NCBI GenBank assembly: GCA_937881855.1
Contig: CALGEL010000059.1
Span: forward strand, 123,032 to 180,428
Direction: 5' to 3'
From: an uncultured Clostridia bacterium
Lineage (GTDB): Bacteria > Bacillota > Clostridia > Oscillospirales > QAKW01
Length of the DNA: 57,397 bases
Shown here: piece after piece, positions 5,040 to 45,087 of the stretch
How positions within the stretch are numbered: position 1 is the first letter of the stretch
Layout: each line of letters starts with the position of its first letter
Notes under the pieces: model-generated
The model's database searches: none
What the model saw: only the letters and a program-made list of their open reading frames with translations
What the model was told of the DNA's origin: nothing
Position numbers and translations under genes: made by a program

Positions 5040-5079
5040 TATATTTTGCTTAGATTGATCGATCAATACAAAATTTAAT

Positions 5080-5168
5080 AATGGGGTGCTGAGTCAAACT
5101 CGGCTGAGAGGGCAAATGTTTTTGCCTAACCCACGAACCTGATGCGGGTAATGCCGACGTAGGAACCA
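5080..5168 (+). promoter_or_regulatory. TPP (THI-box) riboswitch aptamer
   Basis: The sequence ggggtgctgag...ctgagag...aaccc...aacctgatgcgggtaatgccgacgtaggaac matches the THI-box core (CUGAGA ... ACCUGAU..GG.UAAUGCC..CG.AGGGA). It lies directly 5' of a thiT-type gene. Confidence 0.85.
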
Positions 5169-5188
5169 TAAAATTCTTTGATTTATTG

Positions 5189-6009: not shown

Positions 6010-6729
6010 ATGAGTCAAACAGCGTACAAAAGAATTCTTTTAAAACTTAGCGGAGAAGCATTGGCAGGCGCCGGTAAAACAGGCATTGATTTTGATTATG
6101 TATTGAAGATTGGATCCTATATCAAGCAGTGCGTTGAAAAAGGGGTGCAGATCGCCATCGTTGTTGGTGGCGGCAACTATTGGCGCGGCAGAAGCAACCA
6201 GCAAATGGATCGCACTCGTGCGGATTATATTGGTATGCTTGCGACTACGATGAATGCGTTGACAGTGCAAGATGCATTGATTCAAAACGGTTTGGAATGT
6301 CGTGTAATGAGTGCCATTGAAATGCGCCAGATTGCCGAGCCCTTTATTCGCAACCGTGCAATTGCTCATTTGGAAAAGGGTTACGTTGTCATTTTTGCCA
6401 GCGGGACAGGTAATCCTTATTTCTCTACCGATACTTGCGCCGCATTGCGTGCCGCTGAAATTAATGCAGAGGTTATTTTTAAAGCTACCAATGTGGATGG
6501 TGTATATACCGCGGATCCCAAAAAAGATCCCAATGCAAAGAAGCTTCATCACATTCGTTATATTGATATTTTGAGAGATCAATTAAAAGTAATGGACAGC
6601 GCCGCTGCCGCGTTATGTGATGAAAACAATATTCCTATTTATGTTTTTGATATGTCCGATCCGGCAAATATTGTTCATGCTGTGATGGGCGATGATATTG
6701 GAACAACTATTGATAATAAAGGAGAATAA
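6010..6729 (+). CDS. pyrH: UMP kinase
   Basis: YKRILLKLSGEAL, VVGGGN.WRG, and the TGNPYFSTDTCAALRA motif; followed by frr as usual. Confidence 0.95.
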   Translation: MSQTAYKRILLKLSGEALAGAGKTGIDFDYVLKIGSYIKQCVEKGVQIAIVVGGGNYWRGRSNQQMDRTRADYIGMLATTMNALTVQDALIQNGLECRVMSAIEMRQIAEPFIRNRAIAHLEKGYVVIFASGTGNPYFSTDTCAALRAAEINAEVIFKATNVDGVYTADPKKDPNAKKLHHIRYIDILRDQLKVMDSAAAALCDENNIPIYVFDMSDPANIVHAVMGDDIGTTIDNKGE

Positions 6730-22317: not shown

Positions 22318-22404
22318 GCCGGTGTGTTGGAATTGGCAGACGAGACGGACTCAAAATCCGTTGTCAGTAATGACGTGTGGGTTCAAGTCCCACCACCGGC
22401 ACCA
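22318..22404 (+). tRNA. tRNA-Leu (anticodon CAA), class II with a long variable arm and encoded CCA
   Basis: Acceptor stem GCCGGTG pairs with CACCGGC and is followed by ACCA. The anticodon stem acgga/tccgt encloses loop CTCAAAA, giving anticodon CAA. A long variable arm (tgtcagtaatgacgt) and a T-arm GGTTCAAGTCC are present. Confidence 0.9.
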
Positions 22405-26406: not shown

Positions 26407-26540
26407 CTTGTCATTTTGCATAAATCAATAATTTAAGTTAAATAATTTTAATTTTGTTCTTGACAATCAAAAAACAACTGTATTTGGAGATTGTAACAAA
26501 AAAATATCTATATCTTGTGTTGTTTTATCTTTAAAACAAT

Positions 26541-26694
26541 GGTTTACATAATCTTTTGTAGTTGGTTTACATAATAATTTTTGTCAGGTTTGACAAAAAT
26601 TTATTATGTGATAAATTCTCCTTGATTTATATATTTTTTTAAGTTAAAATTAGTATTACTCTCCCAAAATATGATGACACGTTAATTTACATAA
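26541..26694. repeat. Cluster of four dif XerD-arm-like 11-mers within a nested palindrome, in a 330-bp ORF-free gap
   Basis: GGTTTACATAA occurs at 26541-26551 and 26564-26574, and AATTTACATAA at 26684-26694; their reverse complements are TTATGTAAACC and TTATGTAAATT. An inverted copy TTATGTGATAA lies at 26604-26614. An imperfect inverted repeat of about 20 bp (ttacataataatttttgtca / tgacaaaaatttattatgtga) is centred near 26589. Confidence 0.7.
26564..26591 (-). other. Best 11-6-11 candidate dif core (AAACCTGACAA-AAATTA-TTATGTAAACC)
   Basis: The XerD arm matches B. subtilis dif (TTATGTAAACT) at 10 of 11 positions, with an AT-rich 6-bp centre. The putative XerC arm matches only about 5 of 11. 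The site lies where the sampled GC skew flips, 760 bp upstream of xerD. Confidence 0.35.
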
Positions 26695-26702
26695 TATTTT
26701 TG

Positions 26703-26731
26703 GAATAATAACGGACAAACCCTCATACCTT
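26703..26731 (+). promoter_or_regulatory. Candidate sigma-E-type promoter for spoIIM-xerD
   Basis: GAATAAT (26703-26709), a 14-nt spacer, then CATACCTT (26724-26731). The B. subtilis sigma-E consensus, as I recall it, is an ATA-type -35, 14 nt, then CATACAhT. The -10 has two mismatches, and the spacer contains GGACAA (SpoIIID-box-like). Confidence 0.3.
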
Positions 26732-26748
26732 TTATTGAGGTGATCATA

Positions 26749-27336
26749 ATGGGCCGTTTAATGTTGAAGATTAAAAATGATTTTGTCAATGAAATTCCGT
26801 TAATTCGCATTTATTCTATATTATATTTAGCGGGGATTTTTATAGGTACGATCGGTGTCATACTTTCCTTTGATGCGCTTTCCAATATACCTTCAGCCAT
26901 CTTTACTACTGCGGATTCTTTGGAATTTGGCGGGATATTTTTTCAGCATTTTTGTTTTTTTCTGTCGCTGTACTTATTGGGAATGTCTGTAATTGGGCTT
27001 CCGCTTCTGCCGTTTTTTCCATTATATAAAGGTTTTTCGATCGGAGTAATCCTATCAATAGCCTTGATTTCAAATGGACTGCGCTGCTTCTTTATAAGTG
27101 TCCTGACATTTGTTTTTCAAAATATTTTTACTTTAATATTGGGATATTTTATTTGCATTTCCTCTGCCCGTCTGTCAATCTCTTTTTTTGAATTATTAAA
27201 GGGAAGGGGGAAACATTCTGCGTTATATCACGAGTTTTTAAACCATACATACCGTTTTTTGATTATTACGCCAATTCTGTTGCTTTTGAGTTATTTGCAA
27301 TGGAAGATCGTTCCGATCATCATTAAATTTTATTAG
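26749..27336 (+). CDS. spoIIM: Stage II sporulation protein M
   Basis: A polytopic protein of about 195 aa with the SpoIIM-like pattern (FLSLYLLGMSVIGLPLLPFFPLYKGFSIGV), immediately upstream of xerD as in many Clostridia. ATG 26749 follows gaggtg. Confidence 0.7.
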   Translation: MGRLMLKIKNDFVNEIPLIRIYSILYLAGIFIGTIGVILSFDALSNIPSAIFTTADSLEFGGIFFQHFCFFLSLYLLGMSVIGLPLLPFFPLYKGFSIGVILSIALISNGLRCFFISVLTFVFQNIFTLILGYFICISSARLSISFFELLKGRGKHSALYHEFLNHTYRFLIITPILLLLSYLQWKIVPIIIKFY

Positions 27337-27353: not shown

Positions 27354-28256
27354 GTGGAAAAAACTTATATGAATTTTTGCAATTTTCTCATGACTAAAAA
27401 GAAGACATCCGCCAATACTCTCGCTTCCTATCAGCGTGATCTTCGCCAACTGATTCAATATCTGGAAGGAAAGCAAGTTTCTTCTTGGAGCGAAGTTTCA
27501 GATGAATTGTTAAATACCTATTTTTCCTTTTTGAAAAGTTGCAACAAAAGCGACGCTACCATCTCCCGTTCGATGTCCACAATGCGTTGTTTTTTCAAAT
27601 ACTTGGTTTCCAAAAAAATCATATCTGCCAGCCCGATGGTCGGCATCAGAGGATTGAAAAGCGAAACCAAATTACCCGAAGTTCTTTCCGGCGAGGAAGT
27701 AGAACAACTCTTATGGCAACCCGATACTCAAACCGTCAAGGGTATGAGAGATAAGGCAATGCTGGAAGTATTATATGCTTCGGGAATTCGTGTCACCGAG
27801 TTGCTTTCTTTAAAACTATCCGATGTCAATCTCGATGTTGGATATTTAATGATGAACAAATATGAAGAGAATGAACGCATCATCCCCATTTATGCGTTAG
27901 CTGTTCAGTCGCTGAGAAATTATATGAACCAAGCCAGGCCCCAGTTGGTTGATAACAATAAAGAACAAACGCTTTTTGTCAATACCAATGGACAAGCTAT
28001 GACTCGTCAAGGGTTTTGGAAACTTGTAAGGCAATATACTTTGTCGGCAAATATTGCCAAAGATATCACTCCCAAGATATTGCGCCATTCTTTCGCTACG
28101 CATTTACTTGAAAATGGAGCAGATATTAATATGGTGAAAGATATGATGGGCCATTCTTCGTTGAATTCGACAAGAGTTTATGCGAAGCTACTTAAAGCTA
28201 AATATCTTTCAACCTATGAAAATTGTCACCCAAGAGCTGTAAAGGTAGGCGAATAA
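27354..28256 (+). CDS. xerD: Site-specific tyrosine recombinase XerD
   Basis: 300 aa with N-domain SANTLASYQRDL..L and catalytic residues in GIRVTELLSL, LRHSFATHLLENGADI..V..MMGHSSL..T.VY. A GTG start follows aggagggg. Confidence 0.85.
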   Translation: MEKTYMNFCNFLMTKKKTSANTLASYQRDLRQLIQYLEGKQVSSWSEVSDELLNTYFSFLKSCNKSDATISRSMSTMRCFFKYLVSKKIISASPMVGIRGLKSETKLPEVLSGEEVEQLLWQPDTQTVKGMRDKAMLEVLYASGIRVTELLSLKLSDVNLDVGYLMMNKYEENERIIPIYALAVQSLRNYMNQARPQLVDNNKEQTLFVNTNGQAMTRQGFWKLVRQYTLSANIAKDITPKILRHSFATHLLENGADINMVKDMMGHSSLNSTRVYAKLLKAKYLSTYENCHPRAVKVGE

Positions 28257-29097: not shown

Positions 29098-30171
29098 ATG
29101 AAAAAGAAAGTCATCATTCTTGGAATTATCATTTTATCTATTCTTGCAATTATTCTTGGCGCGATTATTGCGATCCCTAAGATCAAAGGATACCTCCCAT
29201 ATTATTATGATCTTAACGGAAAAAACCAGCAGGACAAGCCTTATGTCTTGGAAATTGATAAGACCGATTTCGCAAATGAAGTTGTCAAAGAATTATTTGA
29301 TAACGGCATCATTTGTTCTTCTGCTCGTTTTTTAAATTATATTAACAAAAACTATCCCGACTTCGTTTGGTACAATGGTGTTTATCATCTCAATGCCAAT
29401 ATGTCTTATAAGCAATTATGCGAAGCATTGATGCACCCTGATGAAACCTTGAATTATGTTAAATTCACCGTTCCCGAAGGTAAAAACGTGCGCGACATAG
29501 CGAACATCGTTTCAAAGTCCGGCCTATGCACAGCCGACGAGTTTTTGAAGGCTGCCGACAGCTATGATTATGACTTTGATTTTATTGACGAATTAAAGAA
29601 TCGCGATCAAAGTAAAATCGGCTATAAGTTAGAGGGTTATCTTTTTCCGGCAACCTATGAATTTCGCGCAGATACGGTTACTCCGCAAGAAATTGTGGCA
29701 AAAATGCTGCAAACATTTTCGGAATATGTTACCCCCGAAATGATCAAAAAGGCAAAAAAAATGGACCTTTCACTCAATGAATTTATCACCTTTGGCTCCG
29801 TTGTACAAGCCGAAGCGTTCAGCAAAGAATCCATGGCCGGAGTTTCTTCCGTTTTTTGGAATCGACTGAATTCAAAAGAATATCCCAGACTTCAATCGGA
29901 CCCCACAACAAAATATGCGAAGTCTTTATCAGATCTTTCTCATTACTCCAAGGATATGCGCTCTGCCTATGACACATATACTTGCAGCAATTTGCCCGTC
30001 GGACCGACAAATTGCCCCGGCATCGACGTTTTAAACGCAATCTTAAACCCGCCAAAAACGGATTATTATTATTTTGTCACCGATAAAAATGGGCAATTCT
30101 ATTTTAACACCACCCTTAAAGGGCATAACCAGATAATTCAATCTCTTAAAAGCAAAGGTCTTTGGGCTTAA
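29098..30171 (+). CDS. mltG: Endolytic murein transglycosylase MltG (YceG-like)
   Basis: N-terminal TM anchor, F.VPEG, LEGYLFP.TYEF, ASIVQ.E-like (GSVVQAEA), SVFWNRL, LQSDPT and YDTY...LP.GPI.NPG. Confidence 0.9.
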   Translation: MKKKVIILGIIILSILAIILGAIIAIPKIKGYLPYYYDLNGKNQQDKPYVLEIDKTDFANEVVKELFDNGIICSSARFLNYINKNYPDFVWYNGVYHLNANMSYKQLCEALMHPDETLNYVKFTVPEGKNVRDIANIVSKSGLCTADEFLKAADSYDYDFDFIDELKNRDQSKIGYKLEGYLFPATYEFRADTVTPQEIVAKMLQTFSEYVTPEMIKKAKKMDLSLNEFITFGSVVQAEAFSKESMAGVSSVFWNRLNSKEYPRLQSDPTTKYAKSLSDLSHYSKDMRSAYDTYTCSNLPVGPTNCPGIDVLNAILNPPKTDYYYFVTDKNGQFYFNTTLKGHNQIIQSLKSKGLWA

Positions 30172-44046: not shown

Positions 44047-44080
44047 TTAACTGCGCAAAATATTCATTTTGTGCAGTTAA
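44047..44080. other. 15-bp-arm palindrome: a recombinase core-site-like element or an atypical terminator
   Basis: TTAACTGCGCAAAAT attc ATTTTGTGCAGTTAA has one G.T position and no adjacent T run. It lies 24 nt upstream of the Xer-like recombinase start. Confidence 0.4.
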
Positions 44081-44103
44081 TACTGTTTTAAAGGACGTAT
44101 GTT

Positions 44104-45087
44104 ATGATCAACTATGAATCTCTTCCCCAAACATTAAAAGACTTTATTTTTTATCTCGAAGTTGTTGCGGGGAAATCAAAATCAACTACATATGAATATT
44201 TACTGGATTTAGAAAACTTTTTTCGTTTTATGCGTTACAAAAAGGATAAATTTCCACCGCAAACGAAGTTGCATGATATCCCTATCAATGAAATTGATAT
44301 CGATTTTGTATCTTCCATTACATTGGAGGACATTTACGAATATTTTTATTATCTGCGCGAAAAGCGAAATAATAATTCAAGAACTATCGCTCGCAAAATG
44401 TCTACCCTTCGTGTTTATTTTCGCTATATGACTCAAAGAATGCATCATCTTAAATCAAATCCGATGGATAATGTGCAGACCCCTTCCCTACCCAAGACCT
44501 TACCCAAATATCTAACGTTGGAAGAAAGCACTGAATTATTGGCAGCAATCAAAAAGAGCCGCCGAGATTATGCGATTATTACATTATTTTTGAATTGTGG
44601 GATGCGACTTGCAGAGCTTGTATCTTTAAACATCAATGATATTAAAAATGAATATGTTGTTATCACCGGTAAAGGCAATAAACAACGCACTATTCATTTA
44701 AACCAAGCTTGTCGTAATGCTATTGATGGTTATTTAAAATACGAACGTCCTACCGAAGGATTAAAAGACCCCGATGCTTTATTTATCAGCAGAAATATGC
44801 AACGTATTTCGAGACGAGCAGTTCAAAATTTAGTTGAGAAATACTTAAAAATTGCGGGTTTAAATGATCGAAAAATATCTACACACAAACTGCGCCATAC
44901 CGCCGCCACTTTAATGCACCGTCACGGCCATGTAGATATTCGTGTACTACAAGAGATCTTGGGGCACGAAAACCTTGGTACAACGCAAATTTACACCCAT
45001 GTAGATAGCGAATCGATAAAAGAAGCGTCGATGAGCAATCCCCTATCGAAATTTCACCAAAGAACAACCGAATCAGATGAAAAGTAA
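44104..45087 (+). CDS. Xer-family tyrosine recombinase (XerC-like)
   Basis: 327 aa. The N-terminal core-binding domain reads S..TTYEYLLDLENFFRF. Catalytic motifs are GMRLAELVSL, HKLRHTAATLM and LGHENLGTTQIYTHV. Confidence 0.8.
   Translation: MINYESLPQTLKDFIFYLEVVAGKSKSTTYEYLLDLENFFRFMRYKKDKFPPQTKLHDIPINEIDIDFVSSITLEDIYEYFYYLREKRNNNSRTIARKMSTLRVYFRYMTQRMHHLKSNPMDNVQTPSLPKTLPKYLTLEESTELLAAIKKSRRDYAIITLFLNCGMRLAELVSLNINDIKNEYVVITGKGNKQRTIHLNQACRNAIDGYLKYERPTEGLKDPDALFISRNMQRISRRAVQNLVEKYLKIAGLNDRKISTHKLRHTAATLMHRHGHVDIRVLQEILGHENLGTTQIYTHVDSESIKEASMSNPLSKFHQRTTESDEK

Follow-up and report, generated by a model that had tools for sequence, protein, structure and literature searches.

The window analysed here, i.e. 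the whole stretch of 57,397 nucleotides, comes from an uncultured Clostridia bacterium and carries a spoIIM-xerD operon preceded by an ORF-free gap in which a short motif recurs. The features of the gap and of the operon are the following (window positions):

26407-26748: ORF-free gap, between the stop codon of the preceding membrane-protein gene and the ATG of spoIIM (26749)
26408-26424, + strand: conserved block TTGTCATTTTGCATAAA, opening the gap
26541-26552, + strand: unit 1, GGTTTACATAAT, whose reverse complement ATTATGTAAACC is XerD-arm-like
26564-26575, + strand: unit 2, GGTTTACATAAT, 23 bp past unit 1
26587-26599, + strand: degenerate unit GGTTTGACAAAAA, about 23 bp past unit 2, including a TTGACA -35-like hexamer
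26604-26614, - strand: inverted TTATGTGATAA, previously taken as a fourth half-site, part of a palindrome at 26569-26609
26622-26650, + strand: sigma-A-like promoter TTGATT-17-TAAAAT (-35 at 26622, -10 at 26645)
26684-26695, + strand: unit 3, AATTTACATAAT, about 30 bp 3' of the predicted sigma-A transcript start and 5' of the sigma-E-like promoter
26705-26731, + strand: sigma-E-like promoter of spoIIM (ATA, 16 nt, CATACCTT), downstream of the array, with a SpoIIID-like GGACAA box inside it (26713-26718)
26749-27336, + strand: gene of a spoIIM-family membrane protein, first gene of the operon
27354-28256, + strand: xerD

The product of the first gene gave a TIGR02831 match of 37 bits, i.e. under the cutoff, and its ortholog at locus L203 carries the SpoIIM domain (PF01944). 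XerD was recognised by TIGR02225 (305 bits) and NF001399 (291 bits, for a cutoff of 279 bits). The Rfam search retrieved only a TPP riboswitch and one tRNA, with no match inside the gap.

Three direct copies of (G)GTTTACATAAT start at 26541, 26564 and 26684; read on the opposite strand, they correspond to the XerD arm of Firmicute dif sites. All the sequences quoted for this gap in an earlier note on the same DNA were retrieved at their positions, including GGTTTACATAA(T) at 26541-26552 and 26564-26575. The motif TTTACATAA occurs exactly three times in the 57 kb, always inside the same 154 bp; chance would give 1.28 occurrences in the entire window, fewer than the three direct copies observed. 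As reference we used the dif sequences of S. aureus, B. halodurans and Desulfitobacterium (PMC3025954, supplement 2), whose XerD arm is TTATGTAAACT. The similarity of 10 positions out of 11 claimed earlier was reproduced against this arm for the reverse complement of all three units, i.e. in agreement with TTATGT(A/T)AA(C/A)T.

Orthologous intergenic regions were aligned, as the earlier note had proposed, with five relatives whose XerD shares 71-76 % identity with that of the window (L001-L005). All three direct copies were kept, with invariant sequence and spacing, while the DNA between them diverges: unit 1 is unchanged, unit 2 and the 23-bp spacing are unchanged both in these relatives and in L203, and the core of unit 3 (TTTACATAAT) is unchanged at 120-124 bp from unit 2. 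A lone distal unit was also found at six other loci (L010, L024, L028, L031, L034 and L038). Within the degenerate unit, the TT.ACAAAAA columns are invariant in alignment A1, and an ACAAAAA(T)TT box is kept after the array in both the 23-bp- and the 14-bp-period clades, distant loci included. A second promoter-like arrangement, TTGACA-16-TAAATT with an upstream TG, can be read at this degenerate unit; its -10 is not kept in relatives. The block at the start of the gap also has invariant columns in A1; it contains TTTTGCATAA, a weaker relative of the unit (8/12), and its L203 counterpart is TTGACAATTTGCATAAAAA. Between the sigma-A -10 and unit 3, a hairpin is predicted in five relatives, with compensatory changes at 4 of 5 pairs, whereas the same region is weak or absent as a hairpin in the window (fold z = -0.5).

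The inverted half-site and the nested palindrome are present in the window genome but have no counterpart at the corresponding position of L001-L005 and L203. The earlier heading of four half-sites in a nested palindrome was thus overstated: three conserved direct units and a degenerate one stand, and the palindrome is lineage-specific. The latter may reflect chance in AT-rich DNA. Lacking conservation in the six relatives, it was rejected as a functional element, and the inverted half-site was treated as lying outside that element.

The sigma-A-like promoter probably drives the spoIIM-xerD operon in vegetative cells, as judged from its hexamers and their conservation: CTTG and TAAAAT are invariant in A1, and L203 has an equivalent TTGCTT-17-TAAAAT. 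Its position relative to the units is also conserved. The end of unit 2 lies 47 bp from the -35 and, in more than 23 loci belonging to both period clades, the best sigma-A-like -35 begins 45-48 bp past the second unit. At four loci (L007, L084, L104 and L128), the final unit GTTGACATAA itself forms the -35. Downstream of the array, the ATA, GGACA and CCCTCATA columns are invariant in A1, and distant relatives show ATATCTTGTCC-N8-CATA directly 5' of the spoIIM RBS. We take this element to be a sigma-E promoter with a SpoIIID box on the basis of the B. subtilis consensus.

The distribution of the motif was then assessed on 80 species-level xerD loci (about 650 kb). On the xerD strand and 5' of the xerD operon, 69 occurrences of the 10-mer were counted, in 35 of the 80 loci, against only two in any other orientation or position (69/71 upstream and same strand), for about seven occurrences in total expected from composition by our estimate. 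The consensus of the 69 units is (A/G)GTT(T/A)ACATAA(T/A), the reverse complement of the Firmicute XerD arm, and this identity over 11-12 nt persists in genomes of 28-59 % GC. Units are arranged head-to-tail with periods of 13-14, 21 or 23 bp. The array recurs in many lineages of uncultured Clostridia from gut and rumen. At five loci (L017, L019, L050, L063 and L070) it lies directly 5' of xerD without spoIIM, and the upstream gene varies among loci. A metagenome scan for tandem pairs gave a similar picture: among the pairs of 13-14 bp period with enough downstream sequence to be assessed, 36 out of 42 were upstream of xerD and on the same strand, while none of the pairs of 15-20 bp period was upstream of xerD.

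Tandem units were nonetheless encountered away from xerD, namely between aroB and aroC in L131 (at least 13 units), upstream of aroK in L120 and between hisS and aspS in L130. Among viral contigs, 68 carry tandem pairs without xerD in the vicinity, some of these pairs lying within terminal inverted repeats. The motif alone is therefore neither diagnostic of nor exclusive to the xerD context, and other proteins may read it. In L130, L149, L150 and L179, the non-xerD arrays point opposite to the neighbouring genes. No second array was found elsewhere in the 57-kb window, which contains the terminus.

The other Xer gene of the window lies further downstream:

44050-44077, no strand assigned: 11-6-11 palindrome ACTGCGCAAAA-TATTCA-TTTTGTGCAGT, 26 bp 5' of xerC
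44104-45087, + strand: xerC, with canonical R, GKGNK, HxxR, H and Y, the final + strand gene before the gene-orientation switch

Orthologs of xerC are conserved (P0001-P0120), with an identical terminal position in L201-L203, and xerC was the last gene before the switch in the four loci examined out of four. The palindrome is kept 5' of xerC, with symmetric changes in its arms, in L201, L202, L203, L018, L068 and L187. It abuts a -35-like hexamer, and its arms share 7-8 of 11 positions with the XerC arm of Firmicutes. This palindrome may be a dif or an XerC operator; together with xerC at the orientation switch, it would make a better candidate for a recombination module than the array.

The array had been described as lying at the apparent skew switch, which holds in part: the overall GC skew of + strand genes falls at about 27 kb, but the skew changes sign and the genes change orientation at 45.09-45.13 kb, and the polarity of the few KOPS/SRS-like octamers turns between 41.7 and 44.5 kb. 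Skews at fourfold sites (GC and AT) were too noisy. The distance from the array to the orientation switch is 18.5 kb in the window and 4.3 kb in L203, and in 12 array-bearing loci xerD and xerC lie side by side and converge.

By comparison with E. coli XerD (PDB 1A0P), the active site of the window XerD departs from the canonical one: K stands in place of H244, and the GKG motif of Lys172 is missing, the hairpin reading MMNKYEENER. The MTRQ segment that includes the DNA-recognition residues R220 and Q221 (E. coli numbering) is kept. A non-canonical R148 or H244 was found in about half of the array-bearing species, versus 2 of the 47 array-free species.

The sites are real and conserved; across distant lineages they keep their orientation and position with respect to xerD, and they stand in phase with a promoter-like element. 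The earlier note had offered three readings of them: a true dif accompanied by scars of Xer-exploiting mobile elements (IMEX), an XerD autoregulatory operator, or an unrelated sporulation-regulator site. Among these, the autoregulatory operator appears to fit best, in view of the strict linkage to the xerD operon, the fixed orientation and the fixed distance to the sigma-A-like promoter. Judging from these sequence features, we consider the matter evenly balanced as to whether the three GTTTACATAA units and the degenerate TTGACAAAAA constitute a cis-regulatory array of XerD half-sites acting on the promoter of the spoIIM-xerD operon. We infer both that XerD is the binding protein and that its binding regulates transcription. 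The units resemble the recognition sequence of the protein, the match being established with the Firmicute XerD arm, and they occupy the xerD promoter region whatever the neighbouring genes, with or without spoIIM. The conserved palindrome with XerC-arm-like arms at xerC would be a parallel in favour of an operator, and the retained recognition residues of the window XerD, as well as the precedents of difSL-xerS and of the archaeal xerA operons described below, argue for it too. A literature search on XerD autoregulation found no report, and a search for the motif string returned no relevant match. We know of no cooperative XerD binding to head-to-tail repeats.

As we picture such an operator, XerD would recognise in the array the same 11-bp arm that it binds in dif, with monomers on direct repeats at about -115, -92 and -68 relative to the sigma-A-like start and on the distal unit at about +33. 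Occupancy would set the vegetative expression of the operon, i.e. negative autoregulation or XerD homeostasis, possibly through a wrapped or looped complex bracketing the promoter. In the lineages whose last unit forms the -35, it would directly block the promoter. The spoIIM gene would retain its own sigma-E-like promoter for expression in the mother cell. Several points speak against this operator. Units at about -115 to -60 are not in the classic position of a repressor, and an activator or architectural role would fit equally well; tandem pairs also exist away from xerD, at other chromosomal loci and in viral contigs; and xerD is near the terminus in the array-bearing clades, so that a terminus-related function would also explain the linkage.

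The positions of the units, being typical of activators, also suit the operators of another transcription factor controlling the xerD operon, the likeness to the XerD arm being then coincidental. We regard this as unlikely, even though viral contigs and other loci without a neighbouring Xer gene also contain the tandem 10-mer, and the unit overlaps -35-like (TTGACA/TTTACA) and -10-like (CATAAT) hexamers. No regulator gene is linked to the array, XerD being the only DNA-binding protein always encoded beside it; the identity to the XerD arm is maintained across widely different GC contents; XerC-arm-like sites stand in parallel at xerC; and none of the known motifs considered matches the units. 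BirA binds an inverted TGTAAACC..GGTTTACA, whereas the units are direct repeats that also keep ATAA, and bio genes are absent. From the DnaA box, TTATNCACA, the units differ at two fixed C positions. Spo0A, SpoIIID, CcpA, Fur/PerR and PhoP boxes were rejected as well, and so were sigma-E/K/G -10 elements (CATA), tandem repeats of 13-23 bp not being a promoter geometry. An unrelated sporulation site, as suggested previously, is not supported in view of the five loci where the array precedes xerD without spoIIM: the motif does not follow spoIIM, nor does it lie inside a sporulation promoter, the sigma-E-like promoter with its GGACAA being, by the consensus that we assumed, a separate element. 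For unit 2 and its flank (26564-26591) to be the true dif, with the remaining units as IMEX remnants, appears very unlikely indeed. Unit 2 can be read as an 11-6-11 site, the skew of + strand genes drops near 27 kb, and in L001 and L004 its flank reads AACCTGCATAA-N6-TTATGTAAACC, with a canonical CATAA-N6-TTATG core. However, the flank is variable in A1: the XerC-arm side is missing in the window, L003 and L005, and the spacer is 5 bp in L002. For want of a conserved XerC arm, the array does not look like a dif, and the canonical reading of copy 2 given earlier does not hold. The dif matching that the earlier note had called for points the same way, since none of the 28-mers of the window reached 20/28 with any of five known dif sites; a canonical dif search over all fetched loci gave only scattered cases outside this lineage. 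Moreover, the orientation switch, the change of skew sign, the KOPS-like flip and the conserved palindrome beside a canonical xerC are all at 42-45 kb. Where a dif would be single, there are three to four direct copies inside 154 bp. As for scars, the units are 23 and 120 bp apart in conserved regulatory DNA, and their number and spacing are kept across six genomes, with all relatives retaining them, i.e. the opposite of what scars would show. Conservation is restricted to the 11-12 bp XerD-arm-like unit, and the DNA 3' of the array carries housekeeping genes (mltG, spoIIE, mutY, radA and others) syntenic in L201 and L202, with no mobile element; on this synteny IMEX scars were rejected.

Because the locus is about 4-19 kb from the gene-orientation switch, the array could also be XDS-like. 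In the account given by PMC11840125, which quotes Karaboja 2021, XDS are dif-like sites for XerD located in the terminus region, and SMC can be blocked with an artificial array of them. XerD, without XerC or catalysis, would then bind the half-sites near the terminus and unload or block Smc-ScpAB, the position upstream of xerD being secondary. As the main function of the array, this seems improbable to us, and it is compatible with autoregulation, as XerD bound to an operator array could also act like B. subtilis XDS. The units are dif-like sequences that keep the XerD half-site, and their location relative to the terminus, judged from contigs, is as expected, given the distances to the switch in the window and L203, the 12 convergent loci and the terminal position of xerC. 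Large arrays at other chromosomal intergenic sites (L131, L120 and L130), the altered R148/H244 of many array-bearing species, which suits a non-catalytic role, and the precedent of the artificial array, as far as that source relates it, argue in the same direction. On the other hand, a terminus organiser would have no need to keep a fixed 45-48 bp from a promoter or to face strictly one way with respect to xerD, and the terminus-containing window has no second array. The arrays of L130, L149, L150 and L179 are oriented opposite to their neighbour genes, and terminus proximity and array presence may be two traits shared by one clade.

XerD is usually regarded as a housekeeping recombinase that acts on a single target per chromosome and, to our knowledge, the only other activity described for it is SMC unloading at a few dif-like sites of B. 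subtilis. If the array is indeed an XerD operator, it would be the first of its kind, a natural operator-like array serving a Xer protein, and would provide a defined DNA substrate for XerD binding without XerC. The recurrent loss of XerD catalytic residues, together with a xerC-linked palindrome at the switch, would point to an unrecognised division of labour between XerC and XerD at the terminus. Dif predictors keyed on the XerD arm will mis-call such arrays as dif. A wider scheme, which we advance as rather doubtful, is that in an Oscillospirales-like clade from gut and rumen XerD would be mostly off recombination, binding arrays at its own promoter and elsewhere near the terminus so as to set its own level and act as an XDS-like SMC barrier or unloader, while the fully canonical XerC alone would resolve dimers at the conserved palindrome 5' of xerC, in the manner of difSL-xerS or difH-xerH.

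Among known systems, the XDS of B. subtilis (Karaboja et al. 2021, Mol Cell, via PMC11840125) resemble the array, as far as the citing text describes them, in being dif-like, in having an XerD half-site without a functional XerC partner, in lying near the replication terminus and in implying a recombination-free role of XerD. The array differs from XDS in its head-to-tail organisation with fixed periods, in a strand that is invariably that of xerD, in its location within the xerD operon's promoter region and in its phasing at 45-48 bp from the -35. In streptococci and lactococci, difSL is immediately 5' of xerS, and its authors speculated on autoregulation (PMC1914069); in archaea (Euryarchaeota), dif-like sites lie upstream of xerA operons (PMC11840125). 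These cases share with the array the presence of the recombinase's own target directly 5' of its gene. However, difSL is a complete site with two inverted arms used by a single recombinase, whereas the array consists of XerD arms only, as direct repeats, which makes recombination at the array unlikely. The closer analogue of difSL-xerS in the window is the palindrome with xerC (44050-45087).

The canonical XerCD dif (28 bp, 11-6-11) matches the unit through its XerD arm, at 10 or all of 11 positions, but the array has no conserved XerC arm, comprises several direct copies, is not conserved over 28 bp and lies off the gene-orientation switch. The resolvase of Tn3 and gamma-delta, an autoregulated recombinase, binds res between tnpA and tnpR. 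The proposed operator would have in common with it a recombinase that sits on several sub-sites of its own promoter and controls its own synthesis; the res sub-sites, however, are the recombination site of a serine recombinase, whereas the array would be apparently a binding-only element of a tyrosine recombinase.

The array of XerD-arm-type half-sites is conserved and belongs to the region that controls the xerD operon. A transcriptional role is suggested, at the level of sequence, by its strict linkage to xerD, its fixed orientation, its fixed phasing to a sigma-A-like promoter and, in some lineages, its overlap with the -35 element. It lies in an ORF-free gap running from the stop of a DUF3792-type membrane-protein gene (end 26406) to the ATG of the SpoIIM-family gene (26749), with the following features:

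26541-26552, unit 1, GGTTTACATAAT
26564-26575, unit 2, second copy of GGTTTACATAAT
26604-26614, inverted fourth half-site, TTATGTGATAA
26622-26650, sigma-A-like promoter, TTGATT-17-TAAAAT
26684-26695, unit 3, AATTTACATAAT
26705-26731, sigma-E-like promoter (ATA, 16 nt, CATACCTT) downstream of unit 3, with a GGACAA box
27354-28256, xerD, 3' of spoIIM (NCBIfam TIGR02225, 305 bits; NF001399, 291 bits, above the NF001399 cutoff)

The half-sites quoted in the earlier note were all found at these positions, and the match it reported was confirmed, the reverse complement of the unit being identical to the B. subtilis/S. aureus XerD arm TTATGTAAACT at 10/11 positions (reference dif sequences from PMC3025954, supplement 2). 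The three copies of TTTACATAA in the 57-kb window all fall inside one 154-bp stretch, for 1.28 expected window-wide. The E. coli XerD arm, TTATGTTAAAT, is matched in full at 29454-29464, within the mltG coding sequence; this match is kept in the relative L002 (6145), probably through protein-coding constraint. Rfam matches in the window were a TPP riboswitch (5072-5182, 64.9 bits) and a tRNA gene (22318-22401).

A genome scan based on XerD yielded five close relatives (L001-L005, uncultured Clostridia MAGs, XerD 71-76 % identical to that of the window) and 75 more distant loci. When orthologous intergenic regions were compared, as the earlier note had proposed, the three direct units were invariant in 5/5 relatives, with spacings of 23 bp (units 1-2) and 120-124 bp (units 2-3), and the inter-unit DNA was divergent (mean column identity 73 %). 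The nested palindrome with four half-sites described earlier was borne out in part: the inverted repeat exists in the window (26576-86 and 26591-601, 100 % pairing; 26569-82 and 26596-609, 93 %), but neither the palindrome nor the inverted half-site has a counterpart at the homologous position in L001-L005 or in L203, a further array-bearing relative. Nor did the reading of unit 2 as an 11-6-11 site hold, since the adjacent XerC arm is not conserved across the window and L001-L005: L001 and L004 carry AACCTGCATAA-N6-TTATGTAAACC, the spacer is 5 bp in L002, and unrelated sequence occupies the putative XerC-arm position in the window, L003 and L005. Other blocks of the gap are invariant among relatives (window 26408-26424, 26459-26487 and 26508-26519: TTGTCATTTTGCATAAA, CTTGAC..AAAACAAC..ATTTGG and CTATATCTTGTG); an ATAT(C)TTGTG motif is also present 5' of arrays at distant loci.

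The 10-mer GTT[TA]ACATAA occurs 69 times at 35/80 xerD loci, always on the xerD strand and 5' of the operon to which xerD belongs; just two copies in the ~650 kb of these loci are elsewhere or otherwise oriented. Among the 35 are Oscillospiraceae, Acutalibacteraceae, Ruminococcaceae and Faecousia, with a GC range of 28-59 % and, at the distant ones, XerD 43-48 % identical to that of the window. Distant lineages have head-to-tail arrays with a period of 13-14 bp (e.g. GTTTACATAAtgcaGTTTACATAAttaATGTACATAA in L017), and all 69 units together give the consensus (A/G)GTT(T/A)ACATAA(T/A). The gene upstream of the array varies from locus to locus, and where spoIIM is absent (L017, L019, L050, L063, L070) the array stands directly 5' of xerD. 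An unbiased scan of metagenome contigs for GTTTACATAA-N3-13-GTTTACATAA, in which xerD was not used as a criterion, returned 120 stretches. Same-strand xerD lay within 3 kb downstream of 36/59 pairs with a 13-14 bp period, only six such pairs lacking it although 2 kb or more of sequence followed them; none of the pairs with a 15-20 bp period was linked to xerD.

Arrays also occur away from xerD: the 225 bp separating an aroB-like from an aroC-like gene hold at least 13 GTT(T/G/A)ACATAA units arranged head to tail (L131, ~6470-6695 in array orientation), four units precede the shikimate kinase gene aroK (L120), and a unit pair lies between hisS and aspS (L130). The tandem pair was also found in 68 viral contigs, in some within terminal inverted repeats (contigs of ~14-15 kb: L218 and L271, at both ends; L204, L228, L241, L242), where the sequence probably serves some unrelated purpose. 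Other arrangements were a perfect XerD/XerD palindrome, AGTTTACATAA-GTAATA-TTATGTAAACT (L126, 7562-7589), a dif-like ACGTCTGATAA-TAGGTA-TTATGTAAACC flanked by two more direct arms (L162, 1475-1530), a cluster in which direct and inverted arms are mixed (L102, 428-540) and inverted arm pairs on either side of a tyrosine recombinase gene (L121, 1031-1057 and 4483-4530).

The CTTG and TAAAAT of the sigma-A-like promoter are invariant in L001-L005, and the promoter was found again in L203. In more than 23 of the 69 array-bearing loci compared, with the 23-bp-period and 14-bp-period clades both represented, the second exact unit ends 45-48 bp before the start of the best sigma-A-like -35; in L007, L084, L104 and L128 the last unit, GTTGACATAA, doubles as the -35 of a near-consensus promoter. 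In the window, transcription from the sigma-A promoter is predicted to start ~30 bp before unit 3. The sigma-E-like promoter and GGACAA box, presumably sigma-E and SpoIIID elements by the B. subtilis consensus, are both invariant in L001-L005, and distant relatives carry an equivalent ATATCTTGTCC-N8-CATA immediately 5' of the spoIIM RBS. Between the sigma-A -10 and unit 3, the five relatives have a GC-rich hairpin (L001 3293-3335, L002 3300-3340, L003 3303-3345, L004 3260-3300, L005 3303-3340) with compensatory changes at 4/5 predicted pairs, followed by a T-rich tract extending into unit 3, which looks like a terminator or attenuator; its counterpart in the window (26651-26700) is weak or absent.

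Aligned to E. coli XerD (PDB 1A0P), the window XerD retains R148, R247, H270 and Y279, has K in place of H244 and lacks the GKG motif with the catalytic Lys172, its hairpin reading MMNKYEENER; in L003 and L005 this hairpin has no lysine at all. H244K is common to the window, L001-L005 and L203. Other array-bearing lineages show R148K (L007, L010, L014, L024, L028, L038, L040, L049, L072) or H244Q (L020, L028). At species level, R148 or H244 is non-canonical at 16/33 motif-bearing loci versus 2/47 motif-less ones, these events being non-independent; we put the number of lineages involved at three or four. Because type IB topoisomerases tolerate lysine at the position equivalent to H244 without loss of catalysis, the change does not establish that XerD is inactive. 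The protein also keeps the MTRQ segment (R220, Q221), which is implicated in arm recognition.

The earlier note placed the array at the apparent skew switch. GC skew does fall from ~+0.13 to ~0 at 27 kb, but its sign turns negative (~-0.13) only beyond 45 kb, and the last + strand gene ends at 45087, - strand genes following from 45132. KOPS-like G[AG]GNAGGG octamers change from the + to the - strand between 41712 and 44481; fourfold-site skew was uninformative. At the gene-orientation switch lie:

44050-44077, 11-6-11 palindrome, ACTGCGCAAAA-TATTCA-TTTTGTGCAGT, 26 bp 5' of xerC
44104-45087, + strand, xerC, second Xer recombinase, last + strand gene before the switch

The active site of XerC is fully canonical (R, GKGNK, HKLRH, GH, Y), and its orthologs are many, some annotated as XerC. 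The palindrome is conserved 5' of xerC, both arms varying symmetrically among lineages:

L201 and L202, ACTGCACAAAA-N6-TTTTGTGCAGT
L203, ACTTCACAAAA-TATTTA-TTTTGTGAAGT
L018, ATTGAACAAAA-TTTTTA-TTTTGTTCAAT
L068, ACTAAACAAAA..TTTTGTTTAGT
L187, ACTATACAAAA..TTTTGTATAGT

In the relatives L201, L202 and L203, xerC is likewise the final gene before the switch, and in L203 an array-proC-spoIIM-xerD-DUF624 block converges directly on it. In 12 array-bearing loci (L007, L018, L025, L026, L068, L082, L084, L115, L127, L133, L187, L203) xerD and xerC are adjacent and convergent, the pair being bracketed by the XerD-arm array, 5' of the xerD operon, and by the XerC-type palindrome, 5' of xerC. The xerD array thus lies near the terminus in this clade. 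The stretch 44050-45087 is a candidate dif-plus-recombinase module or XerC operator; the palindrome may serve as recombination site, operator or hairpin, and a terminator scan flagged it in the window only.

XerD itself would be the protein binding the array, because the units match its arm, no other DNA-binding gene is linked and the arrangement at xerC is parallel; by binding the half-sites, it would influence transcription of the xerD operon. A different transcription factor may possibly read the units, given the tandem pairs at L131, L120, L130 and in viral contigs. A role like that of the B. subtilis XDS, XerD-only near-terminus sites that unload Smc-ScpAB (Karaboja 2021, as summarised in PMC11840125), does not conflict with an operator; it is favoured by the nearness of the terminus, by the non-canonical residues in the XerD active site and by the arrays found at other loci, but it leaves the promoter phasing unexplained.

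The earlier proposal of a true dif plus IMEX scars fails. As a dif, the array lacks a conserved XerC arm, and among dif candidates in the window the palindrome at the orientation switch ranks first; the IMEX reading falls on the same grounds, the units being conserved in relatives.

XerD half-sites outside dif are already known as XDS, and recombinase targets upstream of their own gene from difSL-xerS (PMC1914069) and archaeal dif-xerA (PMC11840125). For XerD arms repeated head to tail and in fixed phase with the promoter of xerD, our literature search found no description, and such arrays appear new relative to XDS, difSL-xerS and dif-xerA; the xerC palindrome and xerC are arranged like difSL-xerS.
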